Shown here one piece after another: positions 11,889 to 51,538 of a stretch of DNA of 64,000 nucleotides. The position numbers and the translations under genes were made by a program. How positions within the stretch are numbered: the stretch's first letter is position 1; every line of letters starts with the position of its first letter. The notes beneath the pieces were generated by a model. That model did no database searches. It was given only the letters and a program-made list of their open reading frames with translations, and was not told the origin of the DNA. Where the stretch lies: positions 103,742-167,741 of the forward strand of contig CAZHMV010000001.1 in NCBI GenBank assembly GCA_964532665.1, read 5' to 3'. This DNA comes from an uncultured Anaerolineales bacterium. Lineage in GTDB: Bacteria > Chloroflexota > Anaerolineae > Epilineales > JAANWY01.

Positions 11889-11993
11889 TGCTCACCCTCC
11901 CGCAGGTTTGAAGCTTCTTGCCCCGAGAACTGTGCCAAAGGTCTTGTCCCAGGGGCAGAGGCATCGTTGATCGCAACCTGCGGGAGGGTGGCA
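11889..11993. mobile_element. MITE-like palindromic repeat element copy 1 (diverged); terminal inverted repeats CTCACCCTCCCGCAGG / CCTGCGGGAGGGTG
   Basis: The same TIRs and overall length as copies at 20377-20484, 34051-34167 and 51424-51538. Confidence 0.7.
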
Positions 11994-12016
11994 AGGTAGT
12001 CATTGAGAAAGGTTGA

Positions 12017-12868
12017 TTGTCTCTGGAAGTGCAGTGGTGGATTGCGGGATTGCTGCTCAGCACGGTGATCGGTGGTCTGGGATACCGAAGTAAGGCGTTG
12101 GCACCTGGCGGCGTGGTGGGCGCAATCATCATCGGAACGATCATCTTCGGTGCCGGCGGTTGGGTGTGGGGGTTGCTGCTAATCCTGTTCTTCGCCTCGT
12201 CCAGCCTGCTGTCTCGATATCGAGAAGCGGACAAGGCGGCGTTTTCTGAGAAGTTCGCCAAGCCAGGTCGGCGCGATCTGGGGCAGGCAGTGGCCAACGG
12301 CGGCTGGGGGGCGTTGCTGGCGTTCCTGTTCCTGCTGCATCCCACTCCGTTGCTCTTCACTGCCTTCGTGGGGGCCATGGCGACTGTGAATGCGGACACG
12401 TGGGCGACGGAACTGGGCGTGTTGAGCCGGCAACCGCCGCGCCGCATCACCACGGGAGAGCAGGTGCCGCCGGGCACGTCGGGCGGCGTTTCGGTTCTGG
12501 GCACCGCGGCTGCAGTGGCCGGCGCTCTCCTGATCGGGTTGGCGGCTGAGGGCCTGCGTCTCGCTCCCGTCTTGTTGTCCGGCGGTGATGTGGTCCGCTG
12601 GACGATGTGGCTCCCGCTGACGGCCGGCCTGGGCGGATCGGCCGGCGCGTTTTTCGACAGCCTGCTGGGGGCGTCGGTGCAGCGCGTATACTGGTGTGAT
12701 CTCTGCGATGAGGAGACGGAGCGGGCGGTTCACACGTGTGGGACTCGCAGCCGGCCCTTGCGGGGATGGCGCTGGCTCGACAATGACACCGTGAACTTCC
12801 TCAGCTCGGTGGTGGGGAGTGGCGTGACAGCCGGCCTGCTGTGGCTGACTCTGCGGGTGTATCTGTGA
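12017..12868 (+). CDS. DUF92/TMEM19-family integral membrane protein
   Basis: Multi-TM Gly/Ala-rich protein with a TTG start per the track. This is a family-level call only. Confidence 0.55.
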   Translation: MSLEVQWWIAGLLLSTVIGGLGYRSKALAPGGVVGAIIIGTIIFGAGGWVWGLLLILFFASSSLLSRYREADKAAFSEKFAKPGRRDLGQAVANGGWGALLAFLFLLHPTPLLFTAFVGAMATVNADTWATELGVLSRQPPRRITTGEQVPPGTSGGVSVLGTAAAVAGALLIGLAAEGLRLAPVLLSGGDVVRWTMWLPLTAGLGGSAGAFFDSLLGASVQRVYWCDLCDEETERAVHTCGTRSRPLRGWRWLDNDTVNFLSSVVGSGVTAGLLWLTLRVYL

Positions 12869-12869
12869 G

Positions 12870-13481
12870 CTACTGTCGTAGTTTCTCATAAAGTGCGCGC
12901 TTGTTTCGCTCAAACAGCGCCCGGTACTCTGGATCATGAAGTCGATCCACAGTCATGATCCAGGCATCTTCCCGGTTGTCGGTGTAGTAACCTTTTCGCC
13001 GGCCAACTCGCTCGAAGGCGTATTTTTCATACAGGCGTTGTGCCGCGTGGTTAGAGACGCGCACCTCCAGAGTAACGAAGTCAGCGTCCTCGGCCAGGGC
13101 TGTTTCGATCACCTGGACGAGCAGAAGTTCACCCAATCCTCGACGCCGGGCGTCGGGATGTACCGCGATGGTGCTGATATGGGTCTCGCCGGCTACCAGC
13201 CAGAAGCCGACATAGCCCAGCACGGGCGGGCCGGCCGGCTTCGGCGGGCCCAGCAGCCGGCGCAGTCTGATACGCCAGCCGCCGGTATTCGAGTTGGGCA
13301 CCTGGGGCGGTGCTTCGCGTGATCGCACCACGTAGTAGTGCGCGTTGGGATTGAACCTCAGCTCGTAGCGGTAGGCGGAGGGCGCCCATGGTGTCGGGAA
13401 GGATTGTCGCTCAATCGCCATGACCTCGGAGATGTCCGAGACGCGCATCGGAACAACTTGGTAAGGGATGTCTTCGTACAT
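12870..13481 (-). CDS. rimI: GNAT acetyltransferase, RimI-like (ribosomal-protein-alanine N-acetyltransferase)
   Basis: GNAT motif A (IAVHPDARRRGLGELLL). Located in the conserved tsaB-rimI-tsaE context. Confidence 0.7.
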   Translation of the reverse strand: MYEDIPYQVVPMRVSDISEVMAIERQSFPTPWAPSAYRYELRFNPNAHYYVVRSREAPPQVPNSNTGGWRIRLRRLLGPPKPAGPPVLGYVGFWLVAGETHISTIAVHPDARRRGLGELLLVQVIETALAEDADFVTLEVRVSNHAAQRLYEKYAFERVGRRKGYYTDNREDAWIMTVDRLHDPEYRALFERNKRALYEKLRQ

Positions 13482-13539
13482 TGCAGAGAAAGGTCCAATC
13501 AGTAACGAGGATTGAAGGTGTAACTACTGGTCACTGAGG

Positions 13540-14205
13540 TCAAGAGCCGGGCTGATGCAGGTAAACTGGTGCCAGCGTTGCCGGATCATCGGCGTGGCCG
13601 GCTGCCAGTTCCAGCCAGCCGGCCTCGGCCAAATGGGCGGGCCGGCGCACCCGGTTGGCCGGCGATGCGACAATAGCAGATTGACCCAGAACCTGTCTGA
13701 GTTGGGACGCATCTGCACTGTCCAGCTCGCCGCTGAACAGGACCGGCTCGTCGATCTGGCCGGCAAGCTCGGCCAGGGTCGTGATATGATAGGCGTCTAC
13801 CGATGGCGGTGGGCCATCAACGGGGTAGCAGGCGGCGACAATCCGGCCGCGACCGGCCCGGAGGATAGCCCAGAGCGGTAAGTCGCGGGTCTGGTGAGCA
13901 TGAGCGATGATGTCCGGCGTCGGGATGGCGACGATGTCAATCCCGTGGGCGTAGGCCAGCGCTTTTCCAACACTCATGCCGATACGCAGGCCCGTGAATG
14001 ATCCCGGGCCCCGCGCCACGACGATGCCGGTCAGGTCTGCGGTTGACAGGCTCTGTGTTTCCAGCATGGCTCGAAGGTTCGGTGTCAGCTCCACCGTGTG
14101 GTTGATGTGTGAGTGCCAGGTATGTTCGGCCAGGATGACTTCGCGCTCCGGATCCAGGATGGCGAGGCCGGCCGATTGAGTGGCAGTATCGATAGCCAGA
14201 ATCAT
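13540..14205 (-). CDS. tsaB: tRNA threonylcarbamoyladenosine biosynthesis protein TsaB (YeaZ)
   Basis: ILAIDTATQSAGLAIL N-terminus. A 4-bp overlap with the tsaE stop. Confidence 0.8.
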   Translation of the reverse strand: MILAIDTATQSAGLAILDPEREVILAEHTWHSHINHTVELTPNLRAMLETQSLSTADLTGIVVARGPGSFTGLRIGMSVGKALAYAHGIDIVAIPTPDIIAHAHQTRDLPLWAILRAGRGRIVAACYPVDGPPPSVDAYHITTLAELAGQIDEPVLFSGELDSADASQLRQVLGQSAIVASPANRVRRPAHLAEAGWLELAAGHADDPATLAPVYLHQPGS

Positions 14206-14732
14206 AGACCGTATGCAAGCCGTTTGAATTCTTCGAGGAGTTGCCGGTATCGACTACCCTCGGCCCGGATCAACAGGCCACGTTTGGTGTCGTCAACGGT
14301 GTGCATCTCAATCCACAGCCGCTCTTCGGGCAGGAGCATTTCTGCTCGTTCCGGCCACTCTACCACACAGACACCGTCGCCGTAAAAGTAGTCATCCAGG
14401 CCCAACGTCTGGAGTTCCTCCAGGTTCTCCAGGCGGTAGAAGTCGATATGGTACATGGCCGGGTGCTCGCCCACCGGGCCGTATTCGCGAATGAGCGTGA
14501 ATGTTGGGCTGATGATAGGTTCTTCAATGCCCAGGCCCTGCCCCACTCCCTGGGCAAAAGTCGTTTTGCCGGCCCCCAGCGGGCCTTTGAGGCAGATGGT
14601 CTCTCCGCCCTGCAGCAGGGGTGCCAGCCGTGAAGCCAGCCGGCGGGTCTGTTCCGGGCTGTGGCTGATGATGTCGAGCGTGTCAGGAGACAGGATGGGA
14701 CTCACAACCGACCTCCCGCTTAACAACTCCAT
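14202..14732 (-). CDS. tsaE: tRNA threonylcarbamoyladenosine biosynthesis ATPase TsaE (YjeE)
   Basis: P-loop GPLGAGKTTF and a YHIDFYRL motif. Confidence 0.75.
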   Translation of the reverse strand: MELLSGRSVVSPILSPDTLDIISHSPEQTRRLASRLAPLLQGGETICLKGPLGAGKTTFAQGVGQGLGIEEPIISPTFTLIREYGPVGEHPAMYHIDFYRLENLEELQTLGLDDYFYGDGVCVVEWPERAEMLLPEERLWIEMHTVDDTKRGLLIRAEGSRYRQLLEEFKRLAYGL

Positions 14733-14945
14733 CCATGAATCTCACGAATGAGATCAGCAATCCGTCCATTCGCGCCAAACGCGAGCAGTTCGTGGTCGAA
14801 AATCGTTGAGCAATCGTTGACTAAATGTTCTGCCTGGATCGAACCTACTAAACGGCTTCGGCGTTGTATCAGTAGATGAATTATACATGTGATGGAACAC
14901 CGGGACAAGACGCGTATTGTTGAGTTGGTGTGAGAGGATTCTCTT

Positions 14946-15674
14946 ATGAATGTGTTAGTGTTATCAGATATTCATGCAAACCTGGCTGCCCTCAATCAGG
15001 TACTGGATGAAGTAGGTGACGTTGATACAATTTGGTGTCTGGGGGATGTGGTGGGCTATGGACCGGAGCCTAATGCCTGCATAGATCGGCTGCGGGAATT
15101 GCAGCCGGAGTTTTGGTTGGCTGGCAACCATGATTGGGCGGCGCTGGGAAAACTGGACACCTCGGACTTTAACCCCATGGCCAGACTGGCAGCCCTGTGG
15201 ACGCGGCATCAGTTGACGCCCGACAACATGGCTTGGCTGGACACGCTCCCGGCTATTGTGAGGGCTTCAGATCAGTTTACCCTGGCTCATGGTAGCCCCC
15301 GCCATCCAATCTGGGAATACGTTCTTAACGCCCGGGCTGCAGCGGCCAACTTCGCTCACTTCGACACGCCCTACTGCCTGGTGGGGCACACACACGTTCC
15401 GGCAATCTACCGACAGCAGAATGGTCGTGTGGACGTGCCGGCCTTCATGCTGGGGGAACCGATCCAACTGCCCAACGGGCGCGTTATCATCAACCCTGGC
15501 GGTGTGGGGCAGCCACGCGATGGTGACCCTCGGGCAAGCTATCTCATCCTCGATACCGAGGCGCTGACGGCAACCTATCACCGGGTAGCGTATCCCATCC
15601 AGGAAACGCAAGCGAAAATGACGGAGGCCGGCCTGCCGTCCCGCCTGATCACGCGCCTGAACTACGGGTGGTGA
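14946..15674 (+). CDS. Metallophosphoesterase, PPP family (PrpE/ApaH-like)
   Basis: Motifs LSDIHAN, GDVVGYG and GNHD. Confidence 0.7.
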   Translation: MNVLVLSDIHANLAALNQVLDEVGDVDTIWCLGDVVGYGPEPNACIDRLRELQPEFWLAGNHDWAALGKLDTSDFNPMARLAALWTRHQLTPDNMAWLDTLPAIVRASDQFTLAHGSPRHPIWEYVLNARAAAANFAHFDTPYCLVGHTHVPAIYRQQNGRVDVPAFMLGEPIQLPNGRVIINPGGVGQPRDGDPRASYLILDTEALTATYHRVAYPIQETQAKMTEAGLPSRLITRLNYGW

Positions 15675-15681
15675 CCAGGAG

Positions 15682-15781
15682 CAGTAGTCAGTGATCAGTA
15701 ACCAGTGATCAGTAACCAGTGATCAGTGATCAGTACCCAAGACCTGATGACTGATGACCGATCACTGGTCACTGATTACTG
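15682..15781. repeat. Heptamer-periodic hairpin element, CAGTGAT/CAGTAAC family
   Basis: cagtgatcagtaaccagtgatcagtaacc... followed by the inverted arm ...gatcactggtcactgattactg. Confidence 0.8.
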
Positions 15782-15787
15782 AAACAG

Positions 15788-15828
15788 ACGCCCAGTGGAA
15801 CATCACTGGGCGTTTGTGCGTTTTGTGG
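15788..15828 (+). terminator. Rho-independent terminator downstream of the metallophosphoesterase gene
   Basis: Stem ACGCCCAGTG/CACTGGGCGT with loop GAACAT, followed by TTTGTGCGTTTTGTGG. Confidence 0.65.
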
Positions 15829-15912
15829 ACGAGGGTCCGCGCTATTCGCTCTCACCGTTCGTTGCAGTTTATTGTTGGTTGTCAGGTAGTGAGCGACAGA
15901 GGAGAAAACGCG

Positions 15913-16872: not shown

Positions 16873-16901
16873 TCGCTATAAGGTAGGGTCGTCTTACGGC
16901 G

Positions 16902-20033: not shown

Positions 20034-20376
20034 GCACTAGCAAGCAATGATGAAGTATCAGTAGCTGGGAAAACACGCTCCAGGCGGGTCCGTGACCCGC
20101 CGATCTGACCGGTCCCGGGCCGGTCAGGAGCGAGAATTCTCATCTACTGAGTATCAGCCGACGAATTCACTCGCTGGCCAGCCGGGATCATGAAAGAATT
20201 AGCACATAGATTCTATCACAATTAGAGTTTCAGGGCAAAGCCCCCGCTTGCAGAAGCGACCGAGAATCGCAAGTTGCGAAAGACGTCGGAGTGATGCACA
20301 ATGAAGGAGACCTTGGAAGCCAACGATCTACCGGGGAGAGAATTGTGCAGCCTACTCTTATGAAGATTGAGAGGTT

Positions 20377-20484
20377 ACTACTCATCAGCCACCCTCCCGC
20401 AGGTTGCGATGCGCAATGGTTTTGCACCCGAAAAACGGCCTTGAAGCAGCGATTCTCGGCCAATCCTGCGGGAGGGTGAGTAGT
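20377..20484. mobile_element. MITE-like palindromic repeat element copy 2
   Basis: Near-identical to the reverse complement of copy 3 (34051-34167) apart from an 11-bp deletion. Confidence 0.8.
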
Positions 20485-20498
20485 TTGACACTGTCAAA

Positions 20499-22151
20499 CT
20501 ACGAACCTGTCAGGTGGCCAGCCACGTACATCAAGTCGGCCACGTCCACGATCCCATTGCCGTTCGAGTCGTACCACAGGTTGGACTGACGCCAACTGCC
20601 GGCCATCATTTGGACATCGCCCAGGTCCACCACACCGTCGTGGTTGAAGTCAAGATCGGGGGCTGTGCTCACGCCAAGAGTCACGTCGTCCAGATCGAAG
20701 TAGAAGCTGGCGTTGGGTCCCGAGTTGCTTATGGCTTTGAAGGTGATCTGCACCTGTTGGCCGGCATAGGCACTCAGGTCGAATGCGGACGACTCCGCCC
20801 ACTCGGTGGGCCCGCTATCGTCCAGCGTGACCAGAGTCTCAAGCAGGCTGCCGCTGCCATCCCTCACCTGAAGCTCCAACGAGGCAATCGGGGGCAGGTC
20901 TCCGCTGGTCCGCCACCAAAAGTGCCACGTTGCTGAAGTGGCATCGGCCGGGATGTCCACTTGTTGATAGATTTCACCTGGCCCAGACAGCGAGGCATAC
21001 TGGTTCCCGCTGTGGGCAGGAAACACCATGTCTCCTTGAAAATCAGGGTATGCATCTCCCGTTGTGACCCACGGAGAGGAGGAGAGGGCTGATTCAAACC
21101 CCGGGTCTTGCAGGATTTGAGAACTGCTCCCGCCGCCAGGAGGCGTGGTTGGGGTTGGCGTCACTGTCGCAGTCGCTGTTGCCGTCTGAGTTGGCGTTAG
21201 GGTGGGTGTTGGCGACTCGGCTGGAACAGTTCCAGTCACGGTTGGCGTTGACGTTGGCAAACTCCCAACGTGCGACTCGATCCAGCTCTTGAAGTTTGCC
21301 ACGCGGGTGTAGACGCCGTATTTGTTCGGGGAAGCGCAGCCGTCGCCCCAACTGACAATGCCGGCCTGCACCCAGCCACTCCCCTGCGCGTCCGGCACCA
21401 TCAGCGGTCCGCCGCTGTCTCCCGAACAGGAGTCCTTGCCGCCCAAGGCGTAACCAGCACACAACATGTTATCCGTGATCTGGCCGTTGTAGGCGTTGGA
21501 GGCATTGCAGACAGCATTGGAAACAATGGGGACCGAGACCTGCTGCAATGCATCTGTATAACTGGAGTCGTTATTCGGATCTGTGAGTCCCCAACCGATG
21601 ACGGTAGCCAGTGTGCCAGGGTCGAAGAGCGCACTGTCGCCGGCTCCGACTACCGGTATCGTCGGCTGTGACGACGGCCTGCTCAGATGCAGCAGCGCAA
21701 TGTCGAAGTCAACCGTGGACGGGTTATACGACGGATGTTGTATGATCTGCGTCACGGAGATTCGTTCGCCATCGGATGAACTTAAGGTGTGCCGGCCAAG
21801 TACGACATCGATGTCTGACGGGCTGCTATTCTCCGTACAGTGAGAAGCGGTGAGCACCCATTGGGGATCGATGAGGGCTCCGCCGCAGAACTGCCCCTGA
21901 AACGCATTGGGCTGACCGGAGCTCACAAGCGCCGCCATCCAGGGCCAGGCACCGGGCTGTGCCTCGTACCCGCCCACGATGTCCAGCCCAGGAGAAGGGG
22001 GCTGGGGCGTCGCCGGGGCTGGCGTAGGCGTTTCCTCGACGGCGACACCGACGGCGGTCGCAGGATCGGGGCCTTGTGCCCACGTATAGGTCGCGACAGT
22101 TAGCAACAACGTGAAGAACAGCAGCAAGCTCAAGGTCTGCAAACGTTTCAC
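20499..22151 (-). CDS. Secreted trypsin-like serine protease (S1 family) with Thr/Pro linker, beta-sandwich domain and C-terminal type-I dockerin
   Basis: Signal peptide; catalytic triad motifs IVGG, TASHC, DIALL and GDSGGP; C-terminal dockerin repeats DFNHDGVVDLGDV and DSNGNGIVDVADL. GTG start. Confidence 0.8.
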   Translation of the reverse strand: MKRLQTLSLLLFFTLLLTVATYTWAQGPDPATAVGVAVEETPTPAPATPQPPSPGLDIVGGYEAQPGAWPWMAALVSSGQPNAFQGQFCGGALIDPQWVLTASHCTENSSPSDIDVVLGRHTLSSSDGERISVTQIIQHPSYNPSTVDFDIALLHLSRPSSQPTIPVVGAGDSALFDPGTLATVIGWGLTDPNNDSSYTDALQQVSVPIVSNAVCNASNAYNGQITDNMLCAGYALGGKDSCSGDSGGPLMVPDAQGSGWVQAGIVSWGDGCASPNKYGVYTRVANFKSWIESHVGSLPTSTPTVTGTVPAESPTPTLTPTQTATATATVTPTPTTPPGGGSSSQILQDPGFESALSSSPWVTTGDAYPDFQGDMVFPAHSGNQYASLSGPGEIYQQVDIPADATSATWHFWWRTSGDLPPIASLELQVRDGSGSLLETLVTLDDSGPTEWAESSAFDLSAYAGQQVQITFKAISNSGPNASFYFDLDDVTLGVSTAPDLDFNHDGVVDLGDVQMMAGSWRQSNLWYDSNGNGIVDVADLMYVAGHLTGS

Positions 22152-25315: not shown

Positions 25316-25398
25316 AAGCGATAGCGATAGTGATAGTGATAGCGACAGTGGCCGGCTTGCCGTCACTATCACTATCGCTATCACTATCGCTGTCGCTA
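25316..25398. repeat. Hexamer-periodic (GATAGY) hairpin element abutting the rodA stop codon
   Basis: gcgatagcgatagtgatagtgatagcgacagtg - loop - cactatcactatcgctatcactatcgctgtcgc. Confidence 0.75.
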
Positions 25399-33084: not shown

Positions 33085-33178
33085 GTGATCACCAGTCATC
33101 AGTATTCAGTGATCAGTATTCAGTGGACAGTTTCCGATGACCGATCACTGATGACTGATCACTGATTGTCGGTCTCTT
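33085..33178. repeat. Heptamer-periodic hairpin element, CAGTGAT family; overlaps the last codons of rplY
   Basis: gtgatcaccagtcatcagtattcagtgatcagtattcagtg...ccgatcactgatgactgatcactgattg. Confidence 0.8.
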
Positions 33179-33812: not shown

Positions 33813-34050
33813 AAGTCTGTGTGCTCCTTCGCTACGGTCTGTCCTGGGGGCCCTCCTGAGGCCCATCCCCAGGTCCCTCCCGAGCTTGTCGAGGGACCTG
33901 TCGAGGGGCTCGGCGAAGAACTCAGTACAGCCTGGCACAAACGTGCCCTGACCAGACGCAGGACGGTCAGGGCATCGTGCATCATACTGACGAAAACTGC
34001 AGCTAACATTATAGCATGTGTGGGTCTGCCGTGCAAATTGACCCTACGTA

Positions 34051-34167
34051 GCTACTCACCCTCCCGCAGGTTTGGAGCCTTTCTGGCCGAGAATCGCTGC
34101 TTCAAGGCCGTTTTTCGGGTGCAAAACCATTGCGCATCGCAACCTGCGGGAGGGTGGCTGAGTAGTA
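34051..34167. mobile_element. MITE-like palindromic repeat element copy 3 (full length)
   Basis: TIRs GCTACTCACCCTCCCGCAGG ... CCTGCGGGAGGGTGGCTGAGTAGTA. It is the reverse complement of copy 2. Confidence 0.8.
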
Positions 34168-34243
34168 ACGATCCTACTTAATTAATAAGAAGTTCGGTCT
34201 TGCTTTGAGCTAAGCCCTGTGGTACGATTGGCGCACGCGTACC

Positions 34244-37030
34244 ATGACCACTATCAATCGCCGCCGGCTTGGCGTCATTCTCTACGTCCTGTGCCTCGGG
34301 GGTCTGTTATTCACCGGGTTCCTCGCTGTCTTTGGACAGCGTTGGCTCCATCGCGGGATCGTCTACGGCCCGCCGCCAGCCATCTCCCTGGCCGGCGCCT
34401 ACCCCTTCGGCGTCAACGTCACGCTGGAGCAGTATTCCCCATCCCAGCGAACGCAAATCCTGAGCCGGCTCGATGACGATGGGTTCCGTTGGGTCCGCCA
34501 GGTGTTGCTCTGGGATCAAGTCGAACCGCGTCCAGGGGAGTACGTGTGGTCGCCGTGGGATCAGATCATCGAGGACGTCGCGGATCACCACCTCAAGCTA
34601 ATCCTGGTCATCGACCGGACGCCGGCCTGGGCTCGCACCGCGCCGGACGCCGACCCACGGGCGCTGCCGGCGCGCCCCGAGGACCTGGCCGGCTTTGTGG
34701 GGGCGGTGGCGGAGCGTTACGCCGGCCAGGTAGCCGCTCTCGAAATCTGGCGCGAGCCGAACCTGCAACCCTATCGTCAGGCAGGTGAGCCGTGGGCCGG
34801 CGGCCCTGACCCGACGCTGTATGTCGCGCACCTGAGAGCAGCCTACCAGTCTGCCAAAGCTGCCAACCCGACCCTCATCGTCCTCAACGCTGGCCTGGCC
34901 CCGACAACTGAGAACAGCTCGCGGGCCATGAGCGACGTGGATTTCCTGGAAGCCATGTACGATGCCGGCGCTGCGCCGTACTTCGATGCACTGGCGGCGC
35001 GTCCGCTGGGCTTCTGGTCCGGTCCCGAGGATCGGCGGGTGGACGCCAGAGTCTTGAACTTCTCGCGGATTCTGCTGTGGCGCGAGATCATGCTCCGCTA
35101 CGGCGATGCCGGCAAGGCGGTGTGGGTGGTGGGGTTTGGCTGGAATGCGCTGCCGGCGGACTGGTCCGGCCTGCCCTCACCCTGGGGGACCGACGATCCA
35201 GCGAAGCAGGCGCGTCGAACCGTCGAGGCCGTGCGCCGGGCACAGGCGGAATGGCCGTGGATGGGTCCCATGCTGGCGTTGCACCTCGATCCGGATGCGC
35301 CCCCCGACGACCCGATCCAGGGGTTCGCGCTGCTGGACGATCAACTCAGCCCGCGGCCGGCCTATCTTGCCCTGCGCGACCTGATCGCAGAGCACACGGT
35401 GGGTGTCGGGCGCTACCCGGCCGATGCGTGGTTTGCCGGCACCGACTGGCGGCCCGTGGACGACGCCACCGTGCGCCGCATGCCCGACGGCGACATCATC
35501 GTCAGCCGGCCCGTCCCCTTCGGTCGATTCTACCTGGCCATTGGGCTGCTGCTGGCAGCCGCCGGCCTCGTCGCGTGGCGTCTCGACCGCCTGATCCGCC
35601 TCCCGCGCTGGGAACTGACTTTCGCTCTCACGACCACCATCTTCTTGCTCTCACCCTGGCTTTCTCTTACCCTTGTCTCAATTCTCGGCCTATTCATCCT
35701 GTTCACGTTTCGACTGGACCTGGGTCTGGCTACCATCGTCCTCTTCATTCCATTTTTCCACTTCCCCAAATCCCTGGGCTCACACCCGATGTCCATTCTC
35801 GAACTCCTCACCTGGCTGGCCATCGCCGCCTGGCTGACCAGACAACTTCCCCGCTTCATTCACGCAATACGCAGTACGCAATACGCAATACGCAGTACGC
35901 AGTACGCATCACGTCTCGCGTCTTACGTCTCACGTCTTACGTCTTGCGTCTCACGTCTTACGTCTCTTGACCATGCGGTGATCTTCCTCCTGCTCGTGAG
36001 CCTCCTCTCCCCTTTCGTCGCCGCCAACAAAGGTGTGGCCATCCACGAACTGCGGGTGGTCGTGATCGACTCAAGTTTGTTCTACTTCCTCGTTCGGTCA
36101 TTGGGGCTGTCCCGTACCCGGCGACGTCCCGAGTCCATCGAGGGGATGTGGCGACTGGTGGATGCACTGGTGTTGGCCGGCCTCATCGTTGCGCTGTACG
36201 GCTTCTACCAGTACATCTTCTCCGGTGATGTCATCGTTGCGGAGGGGGTGCGGCGCATGCGGGGTGTGTACCCATCGCCGAACAACCTGAGCCTGTTCCT
36301 GGGGCGGATCGTGCCGCCGGCCGGCGTGGTTGCGATTTGGGGACCGGCGCGGTGGCGGCGGGTGTTCTACGCCGTGGCCGGCCTGGTCATCACCGGTGCT
36401 CTGTTCCTCACCTTCAGCCGCGCGGCGTGGCTGGTGGGCTTGCCGGCTGCAGCGCTGTTCGTGGGCCTTGTGCGGGGCCGGCGCGCGCTGACGGCCGCTG
36501 TTGCAACCGTTCTGGCTCTCACACTCAGCGTGCTGCCATTTGCCGGCACGGCTCGCATCGGCTCGTTGTTCGAGTTATCGCCGGGCAGCTCGACCTACCG
36601 CCGGCTCGAACTGTGGCAATCGGCAGTGCATATCATCCGCGACCACCCGATCTTCGGGGTGGGATTGGACAACTTCCTGTACCAGTATCGGGAAAAATAC
36701 GTCCTGGCCGGCGCTCGAGACGACCCCAGCCTGTCCCACCCGCACAACCTGATCCTGGATTTCTGGACCCGCCTGGGGGTTTTGGGGGTTGCGGCGCTGG
36801 TCTGGCTGGTGGTCGCGTTTTTCAGAACAGCCTGGCAGTTGTATCAGCGGTTGGATGAGGATGGACGTGTGCTGGCGCTCGCGCTTATGGCCAGCATGGT
36901 CTATGCGCTGGCGCACGGCCTGCTGGACAACTCGTACTTCCTGGTGGATTTGGCATACCTGTTTATGCTGGTGATGGGGGTGATCAGCCGGCTGGAGTTG
37001 GGGCGTCTGGGCAACGAACAGAGGAATTGA
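34244..37030 (+). CDS. Fusion membrane protein: N-terminal TIM-barrel glycoside-hydrolase-like domain (EIWREPN motif) plus C-terminal O-antigen ligase/polymerase (Wzy_C) domain
   Basis: One N-terminal TM, then a cellulase-family-like region, then more than 10 TM helices with the Wzy_C signature FSRAAWLVGLPAAALF and HPIFGVGLDNF. It contains an in-frame heptamer-repeat insertion at 35862-35967. Confidence 0.6.
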   Translation: MTTINRRRLGVILYVLCLGGLLFTGFLAVFGQRWLHRGIVYGPPPAISLAGAYPFGVNVTLEQYSPSQRTQILSRLDDDGFRWVRQVLLWDQVEPRPGEYVWSPWDQIIEDVADHHLKLILVIDRTPAWARTAPDADPRALPARPEDLAGFVGAVAERYAGQVAALEIWREPNLQPYRQAGEPWAGGPDPTLYVAHLRAAYQSAKAANPTLIVLNAGLAPTTENSSRAMSDVDFLEAMYDAGAAPYFDALAARPLGFWSGPEDRRVDARVLNFSRILLWREIMLRYGDAGKAVWVVGFGWNALPADWSGLPSPWGTDDPAKQARRTVEAVRRAQAEWPWMGPMLALHLDPDAPPDDPIQGFALLDDQLSPRPAYLALRDLIAEHTVGVGRYPADAWFAGTDWRPVDDATVRRMPDGDIIVSRPVPFGRFYLAIGLLLAAAGLVAWRLDRLIRLPRWELTFALTTTIFLLSPWLSLTLVSILGLFILFTFRLDLGLATIVLFIPFFHFPKSLGSHPMSILELLTWLAIAAWLTRQLPRFIHAIRSTQYAIRSTQYASRLASYVSRLTSCVSRLTSLDHAVIFLLLVSLLSPFVAANKGVAIHELRVVVIDSSLFYFLVRSLGLSRTRRRPESIEGMWRLVDALVLAGLIVALYGFYQYIFSGDVIVAEGVRRMRGVYPSPNNLSLFLGRIVPPAGVVAIWGPARWRRVFYAVAGLVITGALFLTFSRAAWLVGLPAAALFVGLVRGRRALTAAVATVLALTLSVLPFAGTARIGSLFELSPGSSTYRRLELWQSAVHIIRDHPIFGVGLDNFLYQYREKYVLAGARDDPSLSHPHNLILDFWTRLGVLGVAALVWLVVAFFRTAWQLYQRLDEDGRVLALALMASMVYALAHGLLDNSYFLVDLAYLFMLVMGVISRLELGRLGNEQRN
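35862..35967. repeat. Heptamer-periodic hairpin element (ACGCAAT/ACGCAGT + ACGTCTY arms) inserted in-frame inside the CDS
   Basis: It encodes HAIRSTQYAIRSTQYASRLASYVSRLTSCVSRLTSLD. It belongs to the same family as the elements at 39712, 41168 and 43949. Confidence 0.8.
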
Positions 37031-39659: not shown

Positions 39660-39711
39660 GTCGCTGCCAAACAGTGTCTTTGCGTAGACACAAGGAGTAA
39701 CTACCTCGATC

Positions 39712-39810
39712 TAGACGTAAGACGCAAGACGTGAAACGCGAAACGCGAAACGTGAACATCCTGGACAGTTCATCCCGTTTCGCGCTTCCCGTTTCACGTT
39801 TCGCGCATCG
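39712..39810. repeat. Heptamer-periodic hairpin element (GACGTAA/GACGCAA/AACGCGA); supplies the last codons of the M16 gene
   Basis: gacgtaagacgcaagacgtgaaacgcgaaacgcgaaacgtgaa ... cgtttcgcgcttcccgtttcacgtttcgcg. Confidence 0.8.
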
Positions 39811-41119: not shown

Positions 41120-41167
41120 TTCATAGAGTTCCTTAGACAGACGTTGTGTACTGGCGCGGGAAGTTAG

Positions 41168-41240
41168 ATTCTTACGTCTTGCGTCTTACGTACTGCGTAA
41201 GCGCTGTCTTTACGCAAGACGTAAGACGCAAGACGCAATA
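41168..41240. repeat. Heptamer-periodic hairpin element (CTTACGT/CTTGCGT family) between the two M16 genes
   Basis: cttacgtcttgcgtcttacgtactgcgtaagcg...tacgcaagacgtaagacgcaagacgcaatac. Confidence 0.8.
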
Positions 41241-41241
41241 C

Positions 41242-42519
41242 TCACACCGGCACATACCACCCAACTGTACGGTTCCTCTCCACCAGGTACGTCTGCGACA
41301 CACGCTGAACATCCTCAGCCGTGACTGCGGCCAGCCGGCCCAGGTAGGCATCGAGCCAGGTGTGGTCGGCGATGATGGATGAGAACCCGAGCCAGTATCC
41401 CTGGTTGGTAACGCTTTCACTGGAATAGGCGAACTGGGCCTTGGCCTGCTTGATGGCTTTGGTCAATTCCTCCTCGGTGACGGGCTCGTCTTTGACGCGC
41501 TCGATCTCGTGCCACAGGGCGTCTTCCACTTCCTGTGGGGAGCGGCCGGCCCGAACCGTCGCCGAGAAGGAGAACAGATAAGGATCCACGGTCGCGAAAA
41601 CGTTGCTGCCAACCGCCGACGCGAGTTTCGTCTTCACGAGAGCCTGGTAGAGACGTGACGTCCGATTCGTTGTGCCACCACCGCCGAAGAAGGCCATGGC
41701 CTGGGAGCCACCCAAGATGCTGTCCAACACCAGCAGTGGGAAGAAATCTGGATGGTCGGCTGCCGGCACGTGGAACACCGCCTGTATGTATGCCGTCCGT
41801 CCCTCGCCACGAACTGTCACCCGACGCTCGCCGCGCTGTGGGGGTTCTACAAACGTGACCAGCGGCACTTCGGGGCCTTCTGGGATGCCCTCGAACAGCT
41901 CTCGAACCCGATCCAGCAGCGCCTCGGTCTCGAAGTCCCCAACAGCGACGGCAATCGCATTGTTGGGCGTGTAGTAGGTGCGGTAGTGCTTCCACAAATC
42001 GTCGCGCGTCATGGACTCCAGGTCGCACTGCCACCCGATGACCTCGTGATGATACGGATGAACCTTGAACGCGGCCGCCTGAACCTCCTCGCTCAGCAGA
42101 AACGTGGGCTGGTTCTCATGCATCTGGCGCTCCGAGATGATGACGGTGCGCTCAGCATCGGCCTCTTCGGGGTCGAAGACGGAATTGATCATGCGATCAG
42201 ATTCGAGGCGCAACGCCAGGTCGAAACGGTCAGCCGGCAAGGTCTCGAAATACGTGGTAAAGTCCACCCACGTCATGCCGTTCATGATACCTCCGTTGCG
42301 CGCGATCTGGCGATCGATTTCGCCCTTCGGGAACTGAGGCGTATCTTTGAAGAGCATGTGCTCCACCCAGTGAGAGACACCCGTCACACCCAGAGTTTCG
42401 TTCCGACTGCCGACGCGATAGAATACCCAGAAGCTGGCAACGGGCGCGCGGTGGATTTCCTTTGTCAAGACGGTCAGGTGGTTATCCAACACCGTCATGC
42501 GGATGTTATTCTCCATCAA
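41242..42519 (-). CDS. M16-family zinc peptidase (active-type, HWVEH zinc-binding motif)
   Basis: HxxEH inverted zincin motif at [12 protein letters not shown] 4-bp overlap with the ugd stop. Confidence 0.8.
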
Positions 42520-46615: not shown

Positions 46616-46715
46616 AGGAAGGAATGGAAGTGTGGAAGAGGGAGAATGGAAGATGGACAATGGAAAGGGGAAGATGGAGGTTGACCTCCATCTTCCCCTT
46701 TCCGTTGTCCATCTT
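46612..46715. repeat. Heptamer-periodic repeat (GGAATGG/AAGATGG...) forming a roughly 32-bp near-perfect hairpin abutting the SWIM gene stop
   Basis: gaagatggacaatggaaaggggaagatggagg-ttgacc-tccatcttcccctttccgttgtccatcttc. Confidence 0.8.
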
Positions 46716-46973
46716 CTAGTTGGCGCTTGTTTCAGCCATCCACTCAGGACGAAGCATGCCGTTCAAGACCCGCTCCATGGTCATGGTGTGGCTGCACACA
46801 CCGCGCGTCAGGAAGAAATCGCAATCGCAATTCCAGTGGCCCTCGTTGTATGAAACTGCATGTGAGTTGTGGTCGCCAGCAATTGTAACTCTGAACTCAC
46901 TGAAAACGATCCGGTCTGTTTCTTGCGCGTATTGCTTCGCCTTCTGGATCTTGCCGATCATCGCCGAATCCAT
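46716..46973 (-). CDS. Small SWIM zinc-finger protein (85 aa)
   Basis: CxC-x11-CxH pattern (HWNCDCDFFLTRGVCSH). A GAAGGAGG RBS precedes the ATG. Confidence 0.5.
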   Translation of the reverse strand: MDSAMIGKIQKAKQYAQETDRIVFSEFRVTIAGDHNSHAVSYNEGHWNCDCDFFLTRGVCSHTMTMERVLNGMLRPEWMAETSAN

Positions 46974-47026
46974 TTCTAAGAACCTCCTTCTTCTTGATGA
47001 GAGGGAAACCTGGTGAGTTAGGAAAC

Positions 47027-47062: not shown

Positions 47063-47150
47063 TCCAGACGCTTACTCGCGTTGCTCTTCGGCTCATTGGA
47101 GTTACTTGGGTCCTCCTTGCGGCCACGTCGCCGCTAAGTTCTTCATGTCA

Positions 47151-47179
47151 AGTATAACCGTTTCGATTCGCGATGTCAA
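47151..47179 (-). promoter_or_regulatory. Near-consensus sigma70 promoter TTGACA-17-TATACT firing toward the terminator and SWIM gene
   Basis: -35 at 47179..47174 and -10 at 47156..47151 (minus strand). GC-poor local context. Confidence 0.5.
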
Positions 47180-47211
47180 ATCTATGTCCCCAGGAAACGA
47201 GGTAATTTGCC

Positions 47212-48291: not shown

Positions 48292-48436
48292 AGTACCGCT
48301 ATTCTAGCAGACTCTTCCACATAAATCAATCGAGTGGCCAAAATCAATCAATCGCCCGTCGCTGGCGACGTGGCGTGCCTCATTCGGTTGGGCGGCCTGG
48401 CAAGCGCTCAGCGGGGTGGATGCCCTGCGAGGGCAT

Positions 48437-48464
48437 TTGACATCGCTCACTGACCTGGTAGAAT
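48437..48464 (+). promoter_or_regulatory. Sigma70-like promoter (TTGACA-16-TAGAAT) for mnmE; the predicted TSS lies only about 4 nt before the ATG (near-leaderless)
   Basis: A 7-bp palindrome GGATGCCCT-GCG-AGGGCAT overlaps the -35. Confidence 0.45.
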
Positions 48465-48474
48465 TGCTCAGGAA

Positions 48475-49839
48475 ATGTACACCCTTGACGACACCATCGC
48501 CGCCATCGGCACGCCGCCTGGCCAGGGAGGGATCGGCATTGTGCGCCTGAGTGGCCCCGAGGCCCTGAGCATTCTGAAGCAGGTCTTTCAGGTGCCCCAC
48601 GGCCGCGAATGGATCGCCCGTCGGATCACGTTTGGGCAGGTGGTCGATCCGGCCACTAACGAAGTGCTCGATGAAGCACTCGCATTCTACATCCCGGCCC
48701 CCCACACCTACACCCGGCAGGACGTGGCCGAGATTCAGGGGCACGGCAGCCCGGTCTCGCTCCAGCGCATCCTGAACCTGGTCCTGCGTCACGGCGCCCG
48801 GCTGGCCGAGCCGGGCGAGTTCACCCTACGGGCTTTCGTCAATGGCCGGCTCGATCTGGCCCAGGCCGAAGCTGTGCTGGATATGATCCAGGCGCGGACC
48901 GAGGCCGGCCATCGCATTGCCATGGGCCAACTTAGCGGCCGGCTTTCGGACGCCGTGCGGGGCGTGCGCCGGCAACTGCTGGACGTGCTGGCCTACCTGG
49001 AGGCGAGCATCGACTTCACTGATGACGAAGTGCCGCCCCAGGACATCGTCAAGCCGCTCAACAACATCCTCAACGAAATCGGGCAACTGTTACGGGATGC
49101 CGACCGGGGTATCATCTATCGCCAGGGCGTGCGGGCAGCCATCGTGGGCCGGCCCAATGTGGGCAAGTCCAGCCTGCTCAACGCGCTGCTTCAGGTGGAA
49201 CGGGCCATCGTCACGGAAGTTCCGGGCACGACGCGCGATACGCTGGAAGAGACGATCAACCTCCGAGGCGTGCCGCTGGTGCTGGTGGACACCGCCGGCA
49301 TCGCAGAAACCGAAGACCAGATCGAACGATTGGGGGTCATTCGAAGCCGCGAGGCACTGGAACAGGCGGACCTGGCTCTGCTGGTCGTGGACGGGAGCCG
49401 CCCTCTCGATGCTGCAGATCGCGAAATCGCTACCCTGATCGGCAACCGACCGGCCATTCTCGTCGTCAATAAGATTGACCTGGGCACTTCCAGGGTCGAG
49501 TTCGACACATGGCCGGCTGATGCGCCACGCGTGCGTGTTTCGGCATTGACGGGCGCCGGCCTCGACGCCCTGGAAGAGGCCCTGGTGAACACAATCCTCG
49601 CCGGTCGGGCAGTTCCCAGTGACCGTCCCATGGTGAGCAGCCCGCGCCACAAGGCGCTGCTGACGCAAGCGACCGAGCACATTCAGGCCGCCCTGGAGGC
49701 TCACGAGCGAGGGTTGCCGGCGGATTTTGTGTCCATCGACGTGATGGCAGCGGTGACGTCGCTGGGCGAGATTACAGGCGAGACGGCCGGCGAGGACTTG
49801 CTGAATGCCATCTTCAGCCAATTCTGCGTCGGAAAGTGA
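48475..49839 (+). CDS. mnmE: tRNA modification GTPase MnmE (TrmE)
   Basis: N-terminal AAIGTPPGQGGIGIVRLSG, G-domain GRPNVGKSSL, C-terminal CIGK. Confidence 0.9.
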   Translation: MYTLDDTIAAIGTPPGQGGIGIVRLSGPEALSILKQVFQVPHGREWIARRITFGQVVDPATNEVLDEALAFYIPAPHTYTRQDVAEIQGHGSPVSLQRILNLVLRHGARLAEPGEFTLRAFVNGRLDLAQAEAVLDMIQARTEAGHRIAMGQLSGRLSDAVRGVRRQLLDVLAYLEASIDFTDDEVPPQDIVKPLNNILNEIGQLLRDADRGIIYRQGVRAAIVGRPNVGKSSLLNALLQVERAIVTEVPGTTRDTLEETINLRGVPLVLVDTAGIAETEDQIERLGVIRSREALEQADLALLVVDGSRPLDAADREIATLIGNRPAILVVNKIDLGTSRVEFDTWPADAPRVRVSALTGAGLDALEEALVNTILAGRAVPSDRPMVSSPRHKALLTQATEHIQAALEAHERGLPADFVSIDVMAAVTSLGEITGETAGEDLLNAIFSQFCVGK

Positions 49840-49845
49840 TCATTC

Positions 49846-51315
49846 ATGTATCGATCTGACGAAAGTCCAATAACACGTTTGTCCGTTCTTGTCGTTGTAA
49901 TCATCATTCTGGGATGGCTGGCATCCAGCATTGGGTCATCCACAGTATTCGCTGAGTCGCCTCAGGCTGAGCCGGGGCCTCGGGGCGTCTTCATCATCCC
50001 GACTCCGCCGCGGATCCCAACCGCCGACCACACGTTCCGGCCCCTTGTCTCAATTCCGTTTGCCCCCACCCCGCCCGAACTCAGAGCCCTGCCGGCTGTC
50101 GGTGAGGTCAAAGCGTCGGCCAGTGTCGTTGCTGAAGGTGCTTCTGTACCGGCCCGTCAGGCGCTCGACGTGCCGGCAGATGAATCAGCCGACCCATCCC
50201 TGGTCGAGATACCCGACGGGGTCATGAACATCGTACTGCTGGGAACTGACAAGCGACCCGAGTGGGGCGACTGGCGGACGGACACGATCATCGTTGTGTC
50301 AATCAATCCGCAGGCGCAATCTGTCGGCCTGTTATCGATCCCGCGCGACCTGTGGATCCGGATTCCGGGGTTCGGTGTCGGACGCATCAACACGGTCGAT
50401 TTCATCGGTGAGTGGAAAGACGCGGAAGGCGGCGGGCCGGGGCTCCTCAAGCGAACCATCGAGGCCAATCTCGGCTTACCGATTCATCGCTATGCCCGTA
50501 TTAACCTGGAAGGGTTCATTCAGCTCATAGATGCGCTCGGTGGCGTGACAATTGACGTCGATTGCCCGGTCCACGATGCATTTCTGGATGAACCACTGAC
50601 CGGTGAGGAAGGGTTGGCGCCGCTAAATCTGGATGTCGGGGTCCACCATCTGGATGGGCTGGCGGCGTTACGTTACGCCCGGTCTCGTCACAGTGGGACC
50701 GACTTCGATCGCGCGCGGCGACAGCAGAAGCTGCTCCGCAGCCTGGCGGAACAGAATCTCAACTGGCAACTCATCCCGAAGCTGCCCCGCCTGTGGGAAA
50801 CGCTGGGTGACGCCGTTCAGACCGATCTGACGCTGCCGGAGATGATTCGGTTGGCCTCAATCGGATTGCAAATCCAGCAGAACCGAATCAAGAGTCGCTT
50901 CATTGACTGGGGGGCGACAGAGAACTGGGTCACAGCCGGCGGCGCTCGGGTATTGCTGCCCAATCATGAAACGTTGCCGCAGGCAGTAGCAGAATTCCTC
51001 GACCCGCCCGAAGAAGACGTGCGTCTGGGGGCGGAGCACGCGCGGATTGAGGTTCAAAACGGCACGACGACCGAGGGGCTGGCCGAAGTGGCCGCCAAAC
51101 GGCTAATACGAGACGGCCTCCAGGTCGTCGGGACGTCCCGGACAGGTCGTTTGGCGCACTCAACCATTCTCGCTTACAATGACACCCCCCGTACGCTCCA
51201 GGTGCTGCAAGATGTCCTGCACCTGAGTCCTGACTCAGTCGCTCATTCCCCGGAGCCCGATGATCGGGTAGACATTCGAGTGATACTGGGAAGCGACTGG
51301 CAACCCTGCCCCTAG
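49846..51315 (+). CDS. LytR-CpsA-Psr (LCP) family protein with C-terminal LytR_C domain
   Basis: N-terminal TM, LCP core (NIVLLGTDKR...DTIIVVSIN...LSIPRDLWI) and a C-terminal LytR_C-like region. Confidence 0.8.
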   Translation: MYRSDESPITRLSVLVVVIIILGWLASSIGSSTVFAESPQAEPGPRGVFIIPTPPRIPTADHTFRPLVSIPFAPTPPELRALPAVGEVKASASVVAEGASVPARQALDVPADESADPSLVEIPDGVMNIVLLGTDKRPEWGDWRTDTIIVVSINPQAQSVGLLSIPRDLWIRIPGFGVGRINTVDFIGEWKDAEGGGPGLLKRTIEANLGLPIHRYARINLEGFIQLIDALGGVTIDVDCPVHDAFLDEPLTGEEGLAPLNLDVGVHHLDGLAALRYARSRHSGTDFDRARRQQKLLRSLAEQNLNWQLIPKLPRLWETLGDAVQTDLTLPEMIRLASIGLQIQQNRIKSRFIDWGATENWVTAGGARVLLPNHETLPQAVAEFLDPPEEDVRLGAEHARIEVQNGTTTEGLAEVAAKRLIRDGLQVVGTSRTGRLAHSTILAYNDTPRTLQVLQDVLHLSPDSVAHSPEPDDRVDIRVILGSDWQPCP

Positions 51316-51423
51316 TCTGTGGCAAGCCTGTGACAGGGGATATGGCCGGCCCTGCCAGCGTGTGGCAGGGCCGATTTCTTCTGGTGTGCCAGACATGCCG
51401 TGTATCCAGGGCCGGGCATTGCA

Positions 51424-51538
51424 ACTACTCCCCCTCTTGCAGGTCAATCCTTCTCTGGCCGAGAATCGCCGCCCTCAGTCCCTTTACCACGGGCAAAACC
51501 ACGGTTCATCACAGTCTGCGGGAGAGTGGCTGAGTGGT
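51424..51538. mobile_element. MITE-like palindromic repeat element copy 4 (degenerate)
   Basis: Shares GGCCGAGAATCGC, AAAACCA and TGCGGGAGAGTGGCTGAGTGGT with copy 3. The TIRs are partly eroded. Confidence 0.6.

Follow-up and report, generated by a model that had tools for sequence, protein, structure and literature searches.

A probable MITE family with ISBst12-type ends in Anaerolineae

Four repeats in the window (the whole 64-kb stretch of DNA that was analyzed) are very probably copies of a MITE, a non-autonomous DNA transposon about 120 bp in length, that has ISBst12-type ends and is most likely moved in trans by transposases of that group. Mobilization in trans is the most likely route because the ends of the MITE are those of ISBst12-group terminal repeats. 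In the mechanism that we propose, an ISBst12-group DDE transposase, whose gene lies in another part of the genome or has since been lost from it, would bind both GTAACTRCTCAGCC ends, would excise or copy the element, and would insert it by a staggered cut to give an 8-bp target duplication. We infer that transposases of this group mobilize the element in the present organism, and that the element has no function for its host. Because the MITE is widespread in Anaerolineae and carries ISBst12-type end sequences, it counts as a genomic parasite of an ordinary kind.

The family appears to be undescribed. In the literature that we searched, no paper ties ISBst12 or IS66 to MITEs, and none describes MITEs of Anaerolineae. 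A MITE family is now tied to the ISBst12 branch of IS66, which is single-ORF and has received little study, and the family's combination of a 14-nt end and an 8-bp duplication offers a clean natural substrate for studying ISBst12-group transposases. Moreover, these elements give rise to spurious ORFs and break metagenome assemblies, with several copies located at contig ends. Gene calling should benefit from recognizing them in Anaerolineae, which are abundant yet poorly represented in culture.

The four copies in the window and their insertion sites

With copy limits taken from terminal repeat to terminal repeat, and with the plus orientation denoting a short arm at the low coordinate, copy c1 (11884-12003, +, 120 bp) lies between selB and a DUF92 gene, and c2 (20374-20487, -, 114 bp) lies between the gene for a trypsin-like protease and uvrC. 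Copy c3 (34048-34169, +, 122 bp) is found between an L25 gene and a Wzy_C gene, and c4 (51421-51541, +, 121 bp) separates a LytR_cpsA_psr gene from a response regulator and its histidine kinase. An earlier sequence-only reading had listed four copies at 11889, 20377, 34051 and 51424; all are present, at positions that differ from these by 3-5 nt, and their neighbors are those it had named (selB, the protease, Wzy_C and the two-component module). Sequence flanking one copy is unrelated to that flanking the others, and the copies show no tie to any gene family. At 114-122 bp, the element is without coding capacity, and the ORFs that extend across the copies are only spurious read-throughs, as had been suspected.

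The 14-mer CACCCTCCCGCAGG is present without mismatches in both arms of c1-c3 and with 2-3 mismatches in both arms of c4, and its paired form has no further occurrence in the window. The most canonical of the four copies is c3, whose short arm consists of GTAGCTACTCA joined to the stem and whose long arm ends ...GGCTGAGTAGTAAC; its stem 14-mer matches are at 34057-34070 and 34143-34156. In c1 the stems occupy 11894-11908 and 11975-11989, and the terminal repeats are diverged (GGCACTGCTCA... and ...TGGCAAGGTAGTCAT). Copy c4 is decayed, with CCCCCTCTTGCAGG and TCTGCGGGAGAGTG as its arms and GCAACTACTCC and GCAACCACTCA as its terminal repeats. Folding of c1-c3 is far above that of shuffled sequences (z = -5.5 to -6.2), with dG -61.9 and z -6.2 for c1 and dG -59.5 and z -5.5 for c3. 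The folding check that had been suggested for the family therefore reveals strong hairpins in these three copies but not in c4, which folds no better than its shuffles (z = -0.3).

Copies c2 and c3 run in opposite orientation with 98% complementarity over 84 nt; c2 is without 11 nt adjoining one stem and has small indels in its terminal repeats. The sequence-only reading had correctly singled out this near-identical, inverted pair with its 11-nt indel, and also the divergence of the other two copies, whose identity to c3 over 85 nt is 64% for c1 and 75% for c4. We infer that c4 and c1 are old and that c2 and c3 are young. Recent transposition of the near-identical pair, as had been claimed, is plausible from the 98% identity, but c2 is without a target-site duplication, and c1, c2 and c4 are carried by every near-identical strain covering them (c3 lies outside this coverage). 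No empty site was found among the loci examined.

The duplication that flanks c1 is perfect. Its left copy, TGAGAAAG at 11876-11883 and read directly, includes the selB stop codon TGA (11876-11878), and its right copy, TGAGAAAG at 12004-12011, keeps a GAAAGG ribosome-binding-like sequence 5 nt before the TTG start of the DUF92 gene (12017), which is called as a 283-aa gene. Copy c1 illustrates how a duplication can save both the stop codon and the ribosome-binding site of the next gene after an insertion between tightly coupled genes. If the diverged terminal bases are counted, the direct repeat lengthens to TTGAGAAAGG. The predicted empty site for c1 would read ...GGT TGAGAAAG GTTGATTG....

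For c3, the left duplication GACCCTAC (34040-34047) and the right duplication GATCCTAC (34170-34177) agree at 7/8 positions, and for c4 the flanking 8-mers CGGGCATT (51413-51420) and CTGGAATC (51542-51549) agree at 5/8. No duplication is seen at c2, where the flanks are ATTGAGAG versus ACACTGTC. The short-arm end of c2 merges into a local palindrome, GTAGTTTGACA-C-TGTCAAACTAC (20480-20502), that holds the stop codon of the protease gene.

Anatomy and distribution of the family

From the outside inward, a full copy consists of an 8-bp target-site duplication, the terminal inverted repeat GTAACTRCTCAGCC (14 nt) and a stem of 15 bp, ACCCTCCCGCAGGTT; a loop of about 70 nt separates these from the complementary stem and repeat. 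The consensus of the terminal repeat, drawn from 58 arms, is GTAACTRCTCA(G/C)CC at both ends, a length of 14 nt. Inverted repeats of 20 bp had been proposed; inverted repeats are indeed present, but the true terminal repeat is their outer 14 nt, fused to an inner stem that is absent from the ISBst12-type insertion sequences examined.

Both terminal repeats were recognized in 29 copies. The 8 nt immediately outside these repeats match at 8/8 positions in 12 copies, at 7/8 in seven and at 6/8 in two, such that 19 of the 29 anchored copies agree at 7/8 or better, whereas the best match among the control sequences, the next 8 nt outward from the same copies, is 5/8. Similarly, flanking direct repeats of at least 8 nt accompany about 30 of 126 elements, compared with 1.6 expected from mismatched flanks. 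The duplication has a fixed length of 8 bp and a variable sequence. Assignment of this short, non-coding, multicopy element, bounded by inverted repeats and flanked by duplications, to the bacterial MITEs is supported by these data. The MITE-like palindromic family first noticed in the window is borne out by its inverted repeats, its 8-bp duplications and, among the matches listed, its copies in about 37 related assemblies.

Among the matches listed, about 37 genome assemblies of Chloroflexota, mostly Anaerolineae, together contain more than 113 loci with the two-arm pattern. By our estimate, about two chance matches to this pattern are expected in the 596-Gb genome collection, and a chance palindrome is thus most unlikely. 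The window holds four copies in 64 kb, and at least 12 loci occur in each of two single assemblies. Further copies are truncated, decayed or situated at contig ends, and tandem arrays exist (L009). A blastn search of plasmids gave no match. In viral contigs, the 14-mer alone produced only single matches attributable to chance and two apparent pairs inside phage genes, and the two-arm pattern produced one Anaerolineae-like copy and one Sphingomonas-type palindrome. Pattern matches of the latter sort, from Sphingomonas and alphaproteobacteria, were judged to be an unrelated GC-rich palindrome.

Relation to ISBst12-group insertion sequences

The published terminal repeats of ISDge4 are GTGACTACTCAGCA and GTAACTGCTCAGCA, with an 8-bp direct repeat (PMC12898284), and as many as 13 of the 14 positions are identical between these repeats and the MITE ends. 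The insertion sequences P0067, L262/L263 and L322 match the MITE ends exactly over the whole 14-mer. In Geobacillus, the element at 14107-15741 of pHTA426 has the ends GTATCTATTCAGCC and GTAACTATTCAGCC, an 8-bp duplication GACGAGTT and a transposase of 485 aa with DDE_Tnp_IS66, zf-IS66 and DUF6444. ISBst12, ISDge4 and this "IS66-like ISGka4 family" element of Geobacillus kaustophilus pHTA426 are like the MITE in having the 14-nt repeat GTAACTRCTCAGSC and an 8-bp duplication. Moreover, GTGAC and GTATC variants at one end are common to the MITE and to ISBst12-group elements.

This trend is also evident in metagenomic relatives, 66 of 80 of which contain GTAACT[AG]CTCAG[GC]C pairs, spaced mostly 1.5-1.6 kb and up to about 2.1 kb apart, and 10 of which have perfect 8-bp duplications. 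Some metagenomic insertion sequences end in GTAACTACTCACCC, which is the exact short arm of the MITE. Cluster names gave no information on the hosts of the ISBst12-like proteins, although one relative is archaeal. A contig that belongs to Anaerolineae or Chloroflexi by Zwf hits of 83-88% (L264) carries a complete ISBst12-like insertion sequence with the duplication CTTGGAAC and, 7.5 kb off, a 123-bp MITE that has the terminal repeats of that insertion sequence and the duplication TTCCTTTG.

Because the ends and the duplication length are the same as those of ISBst12-type elements, the parent is not a member of IS200/IS605 or IS630, the families in which a search for a cognate transposase had been suggested at the outset, and the GTAA... 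ends and 8-bp duplication instead indicate the ISBst12 group of IS66. Nevertheless, ISBst12-group elements are single-ORF elements of 1.5-1.6 kb, whereas the MITE is about 120 bp long and is without a transposase gene. None of the 66 insertion sequences examined contains a counterpart of the MITE interior, with its 15-bp stem and 70-nt loop. Hence, the MITE did not arise by simple internal deletion from any insertion sequence sampled, and its stem and loop, to judge from these comparisons, are not derived from the insertion sequences.

As had been remarked for the immediate surroundings of the copies, no transposase is nearby: a tblastn search with an ISBst12-type query revealed no IS66-type transposase in the window, in about 30 kb of additional sequence from the same contigs, or in the 113 MITE-bearing loci. 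Unpaired arms, GTAA-started pairs 0.6-4 kb apart, and lone repeats with their neighboring ORFs likewise yielded no autonomous element in the MITE-bearing loci.

The conserved interior and alternative explanations

Among the matches listed, the stem sequence and the loop length (69-71 nt) are conserved in about 37 species beyond the constraint of the search pattern, and the -1/+1 pair covaries, although the universality of the stem is overstated because the survey itself selected for the stem. Transposase binding to the 14-nt repeat does not explain why the stem and the 69-71-nt loop are conserved, since the insertion sequences do not have the stem. The same stem also occurs between other kinds of termini, with duplications of 10-12 bp. 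It is conceivable, but rather unlikely, that the stem and its loop of about 70 nt are an independently selected "hairpin cargo" that has been acquired or exchanged by non-autonomous elements of at least three transposase systems in Anaerolineae. Such cargo might be kept for an effect at the RNA or DNA level in one orientation, for example insulating or stabilizing transcripts between closely packed genes. The termini around it are of the ISBst12 type, with 8-bp duplications, and of two or more other kinds, with 10-12-bp duplications. If functional, the cargo would exemplify the spread of a structural module by transposons.

Alternatively, the conserved stem and loop might primarily serve the host as an RNA or DNA structure, such as a stabilizer of mRNA 3′ ends, a processing site or a protein-binding palindrome, for which the transposon ends are a mere vehicle. 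The conservation and covariation noted above would fit a host structure, as would the absence of the stem from the insertion sequences and the presence of the module between at least three kinds of termini. Moreover, confident calls of orientation favor one direction relative to the flanking genes by 10 to 1, and c1 and c2 begin 5 and 11 nt, respectively, past stop codons. However, the less certain calls show no such bias (6 to 7), the family tolerates decayed copies such as c4, and the copies are untied to gene families. Searches of Rfam 15 at the gathering score gave no matches in the window or in five related loci, a permissive threshold gave only microRNA-hairpin noise, and the loop exhibits no covariation or compensatory changes, results that argue against an RNA gene. 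No promoter consensus, U-tract or terminator-like site was found inside the copies. With these points weighed against it, and with a stem-based search that overstates how universal the stem is, a primary host role is improbable. An intrinsic terminator was considered and rejected, as no U-tract follows the hairpin and no copy has a terminator-like site.

The transposon reading also has to be distinguished from REPINs, in which two inverted REP sequences form a hairpin whose mobility depends on a RAYT, an HUH/Y1 transposase from the IS200/IS605 superfamily. REPINs are like the MITE in hairpin shape, intergenic position and occasional tandem arrays, and an intergenic hairpin of about 100 nt with a pair of 20-nt inverted repeats separated by about 70 nt, as well as the ...GTAG at which the window copies end, could be taken for one. 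Y1 transposition, by IS200/IS605 or RAYT, makes no target-site duplication. REPINs accordingly depend on Y1 and are without such duplications, whereas the MITE has 8-bp duplications and DDE-type ends that match a DDE insertion-sequence family. The GTAG is not conserved, the canonical element end being CAGTTAC, and no Y1 transposase lies beside any copy. That the family consists of REPINs is therefore very doubtful, and the duplications alone largely refute it.

It is more improbable still that the MITE belongs to IS200/IS605 or to an IS630/Tc1-like family. The palindrome does resemble palindromic elements derived from IS200/IS605, and IS630 commonly gives rise to small hairpin MITEs, but the duplication is 8 bp long and variable, neither TA as for IS630 nor absent as for IS200/IS605, and the GTAACTRCTCAGCC termini are ISBst12-type ends; this duplication length and these ends refute an origin from either family.

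Finally, a local segmental duplication or recombination product without mobility, which would suit the missing duplication at c2 and the near-identical, inverted c2 and c3, has next to no probability and is refuted for the family, since the four window copies have unrelated flanks and many species carry the element at sites that are unrelated to one another and have their own duplications. Only c2 may owe its position to gene conversion or recombination. The sequence-only reading had likewise reserved a local duplication for the case that only these copies exist genome-wide, with neither flanking duplications nor a related transposase. Duplications exist, and there is a related family of transposases whose elements have the same ends, including in Anaerolineae; on copy number, the evidence is the presence of copies in about 37 related genome assemblies. 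An integron attC reading was also rejected.

As a MITE with ISBst12-type ends, the element resembles classical bacterial MITEs such as Correia/NEMIS of Neisseria, RUP of Streptococcus pneumoniae, ERIC, and Nezha of cyanobacteria, which are likewise small, non-coding, multicopy and mostly intergenic, are bounded by repeats with duplications, and form a long hairpin (PMC3733652 for background). It differs from them in its host phylum, here Chloroflexota, in its end sequences and in its parent insertion-sequence group.

The four copies in the window

The four MITE-like palindromes of the sequence-only reading were confirmed by direct reading of the sequence, at 11884-12003 (+), 20374-20487 (-), 34048-34169 (+) and 51421-51541 (+) (copies 1 to 4). 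The 14-mer CACCCTCCCGCAGG occurs in both arms without mismatches at three of these sites and with 2-3 mismatches at the fourth, and no further paired occurrences were found in the 64-kb window. Alignment and a repeat finder bore out that copies 2 and 3 are near-identical in opposite orientation apart from an 11-nt indel (98% complementary over 84 nt, with the deletion in copy 2); copies 1 and 4 are diverged. Pfam returned the neighbouring genes as earlier named. These degrees of likeness suggest insertions of differing age, with copy 4 the most decayed. When folded, copies 1-3 form a long hairpin (z about -5.5 to -6 versus shuffled sequence), and the decayed copy 4 has no fold stability beyond shuffled sequence. 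An RNA gene or riboregulator is not supported as an explanation of these hairpins: Rfam yielded only microRNA-hairpin noise, and when seven copies of the window's subfamily, drawn from four species, were aligned, the outer stem alone was predicted (covariation term -0.04). The copies contain no promoter or terminator consensus and have no tie to any gene family.

Copy 1 is flanked by the duplication TGAGAAAG at 11876-11883 and 12004-12011. Its insertion point is the selB stop codon, the TGA being kept in the left duplication copy, and in the right copy a ribosome-binding-like GAAAGG precedes the DUF92 start codon, TTG, by 5 nt. Judging from the sequence, the spacing between these genes would have grown from about 10 nt to the present 138 nt with both signals intact. 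Copy 3 is flanked by GACCCTAC and GATCCTAC, and the flanking 8-mers of copy 4 retain a decayed match (5/8). Comparison of the flanks of copy 2 revealed no target-site duplication, so recombination, and not clean transposition, may have produced or altered this copy; at its short-arm end it runs into a local palindrome containing the stop codon of the protease gene. Copy 3 also lies 11 nt from the -35 element of a strong promoter-like site of the ribosomal protein L25 gene (34008-34037, minus strand; 10/12 matches, extended TG), and the LytR_cpsA_psr gene is followed by a canonical intrinsic terminator (51347-51373), 48 nt downstream of which lies copy 4.

Anatomy and distribution of the family

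When species-representative genomes were scanned once for both arms at a spacing of 50-80 nt, the matches listed comprised at least 113 loci from about 37 Chloroflexota assemblies, mostly Anaerolineae, Anaerolineales, Thermoflexales and Thermoflexia, with at least 12 of the listed loci in each of two single assemblies. A few Sphingomonas matches were set aside as a different, GC-rich nested palindrome; this Sphingomonas/Sphingomonadales sequence (CCCCTCCCGCAGGCGGGAGGGG ... CCCCTCCCGCCTGCGGGAGGGG, about 100 nt; loci L024, L053, L055, L059, L077, L081, L088 and L102, and viral locus L237) merely shares the 11-mer of the scan. Local duplication, which had been named as the outcome that would refute a mobile family, is excluded by the unrelated flanks and by the presence of the element in many species. 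Contigs near-identical to the window occur in three JGI metagenomes and some read-set assemblies, with copies 1, 2 and 4 present wherever covered. In the JGI contig most like the window (L342, 3790-3815), the stem within copy 2 reads CCTGCAGG versus CCTGCGGG at window 20390-20403 and the adjacent flank also differs, so the window represents a closely related strain and not exactly the same contig.

An exact flanking direct repeat of at least 8 nt is present in about 30 of about 126 elements, against an expectation of 1.6 from pairing the left flank of one element with the right flank of another. These repeats sit at fixed distances from the stem and thus define the canonical limits: an 8-bp duplication, GTAACTGCTCAGCC, TA, the stem CCCTCCCGCAGGTT, a loop of about 70 nt, the stem AACCTGCGGGAGGG, TGAGCAGTTAC and the second 8-bp duplication. 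A bulge of 4-5 nt is explained by unequal arms: on one, a short spacer separates the 14-nt terminal repeat from the stem, and on the other the stem takes in the last three bases of the repeat (GTAACTGCTCA then CCC). Target-site duplications were likewise found among 29 copies anchored on the terminal repeats, where the 8-mers flanking the repeats match at 8/8 in 12 copies, at 7/8 in 7 and at 6/8 in 2; the 8-mers one step further out, taken as a control, match at no more than 5/8. Whole-element length is 120-124 bp in 25 of these copies. Arm-to-arm distances in the family peak at 93-95 nt, with shortened 28-52-nt versions, truncated and decayed copies, and one tandem array. The array (L009 2225-2772, Anaerolineae assembly JALUTT) comprises five hairpin units head-to-tail with a period of 114 nt, and no terminal repeats of the ISBst12 group, the single-ORF branch of IS66-family insertion sequences, are recognisable between the units.

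Relationship to ISBst12-type insertion sequences

The IS66 family is marked by GTAA ends and an 8-9-bp duplication. In ISDge4 from Deinococcus geothermalis, a single-ORF ISBst12-group member of this family, the terminal repeats are GTGACTACTCAGCA and GTAACTGCTCAGCA and the direct repeat is 8 bp long (PMC12898284). The terminal repeats match the MITE consensus at up to 13 of 14 positions, and the GTGAC variant is also found among MITEs. Similarly, an element on Geobacillus kaustophilus plasmid pHTA426 (14107-15741; 485-aa product with DDE_Tnp_IS66, zf-IS66 and DUF6444) has ends GTATCTATTCAGCC and GTAACTATTCAGCC and an 8-bp duplication, GACGAGTT, and MITE copies in JALUTT have exactly GTATCTATTCAGCC as their long arm. 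A homologue search recovered thousands of metagenomic relatives. For one of these, P0067, the left end of the insertion sequence is exactly GTAACTGCTCAGCC and the right end is GGC-TGA-GCAGTTAC, with the transposase stop codon inside. Profile-guided scanning of metagenome contigs found 80 such insertion sequences. In 66 of them GTAACT[AG]CTCAG[GC]C pairs occur, mostly at a spacing of 1.5-1.6 kb (about 2.1 kb at most), and 10 carry a perfect 8-bp duplication. The others lie mostly on collapsed short contigs. The exact MITE short arm, GTAACTACTCACCC, forms the end of three metagenomic insertion sequences, and the CCCTCCCGCAGG stem is absent from all those scanned. On a 120-kb contig (L264) whose glucose-6-phosphate dehydrogenase shares 83-88% identity with proteins named from Chloroflexi/Anaerolineae assemblies, a complete ISBst12-type insertion sequence (duplication CTTGGAAC) lies 7.5 kb from a 123-bp MITE with the same ends, a different palindromic interior and the duplication TTCCTTTG. 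At Anaerolineae and Thermoflexales loci there are other MITEs that combine ISBst12 ends and perfect or near-perfect 8-bp duplications with unrelated hairpin interiors.

These data establish the ends, the duplications, the copy numbers and the presence of this insertion-sequence type in the lineage. The best-supported account is that an ISBst12-group DDE transposase moves the MITE, itself non-autonomous, in trans; this enzyme would recognise the 14-nt ends and make staggered target cuts of 8 bp. REPIN/RAYT parentage and the previously suggested IS200/IS605 or IS630 transposases are excluded by the variable 8-bp duplication and the sequence of the ends. Searches by tblastn with the ISBst12-type transposase were negative in the window, in agreement with the earlier remark that no transposase is nearby, and also in contig extensions and MITE-bearing loci; no empty site was present among the retrieved loci. 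MITEs and the ISBst12 group, each already known, are joined here; the literature searched held no paper linking the two and none on MITEs in Anaerolineae. The MITE is of interest chiefly for annotation and assembly of Anaerolineae genomes, and as a natural candidate substrate for a poorly studied transposase.

Two further arrangements involve ISBst12-like ends. Downstream of the P0067 transposase gene in five independent contigs (L245, L247, L249, L250 and L251), an IS110-family transposase gene sits exactly inside the right terminal repeat, between GGCTGA and G, and this shared insertion point suggests that an IS110-type element targets the repeat. In the window's contig family (L240 13648-13700), about 60 nt past the low-coordinate end of the window, a short hairpin between convergent genes, ATAACTACTCAGCC-GCTCCCGCCGGATC...GATCCGGCGGGAGC-GGCTGA, combines an ISBst12-like end with a different stem.

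The stem-loop and other palindromes

Stem and loop length are conserved beyond the search constraint: among 117 elements, TT follows CAGG in 88, AA precedes CCTG in 93, the -2/+2 pair is A:T in 103, the -1/+1 pair covaries, and the loop is 69-71 nt in 72 although the search window was 50-80. Because the insertion sequences lack the stem, terminal-repeat binding does not account for its conservation. The same stem-loop also lies between other termini, of the TAGGGCTTTCTCAAAGTC and CAGGGCCTGTGCAAAG types with 10-11-bp duplications and of GGCTACCTGACAGTTTG or CACTACCCGACA..TTGA with 10-12-bp duplications, each having few members (L004, L089, L094, L006, L027, L051 and L113). Confident orientation calls for copies between co-directional genes run 10 to 1 with the genes, but less certain calls split 6 to 7, so an orientation bias is only suggestive. 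Taken together, conservation, alternative termini and orientation raise the idea that the hairpin has a selective value of its own as a cargo module, which we consider rather unlikely.

Many other long palindromes, built of tandem heptamers (CAGTGAT/CAGTAAC, ACGTCTT/ACGCAAG and GCGATAG/TGATAG types; folds of -45 to -95 kcal/mol), are intergenic. In the window they lie at 15688-15785, 33093-33167, 54285-54388, 58906-59012, 39708-39755, 41167-41243, 25317-25397 and 35862-35965, the last within the Wzy_C ORF and not intergenic. Similar heptamer palindromes, of CACAAAG and CACAGAG, make up the interiors of MITEs with ISBst12 ends in a Thermoflexales assembly (L017 789-908, L076 7276-7397). Two near-perfect palindromes at 46649-46716 and 4941-5011 (arms of 33 and 31 nt, 97% complementary; loops of 2 and 9 nt) have sequences unrelated to that of the MITE.
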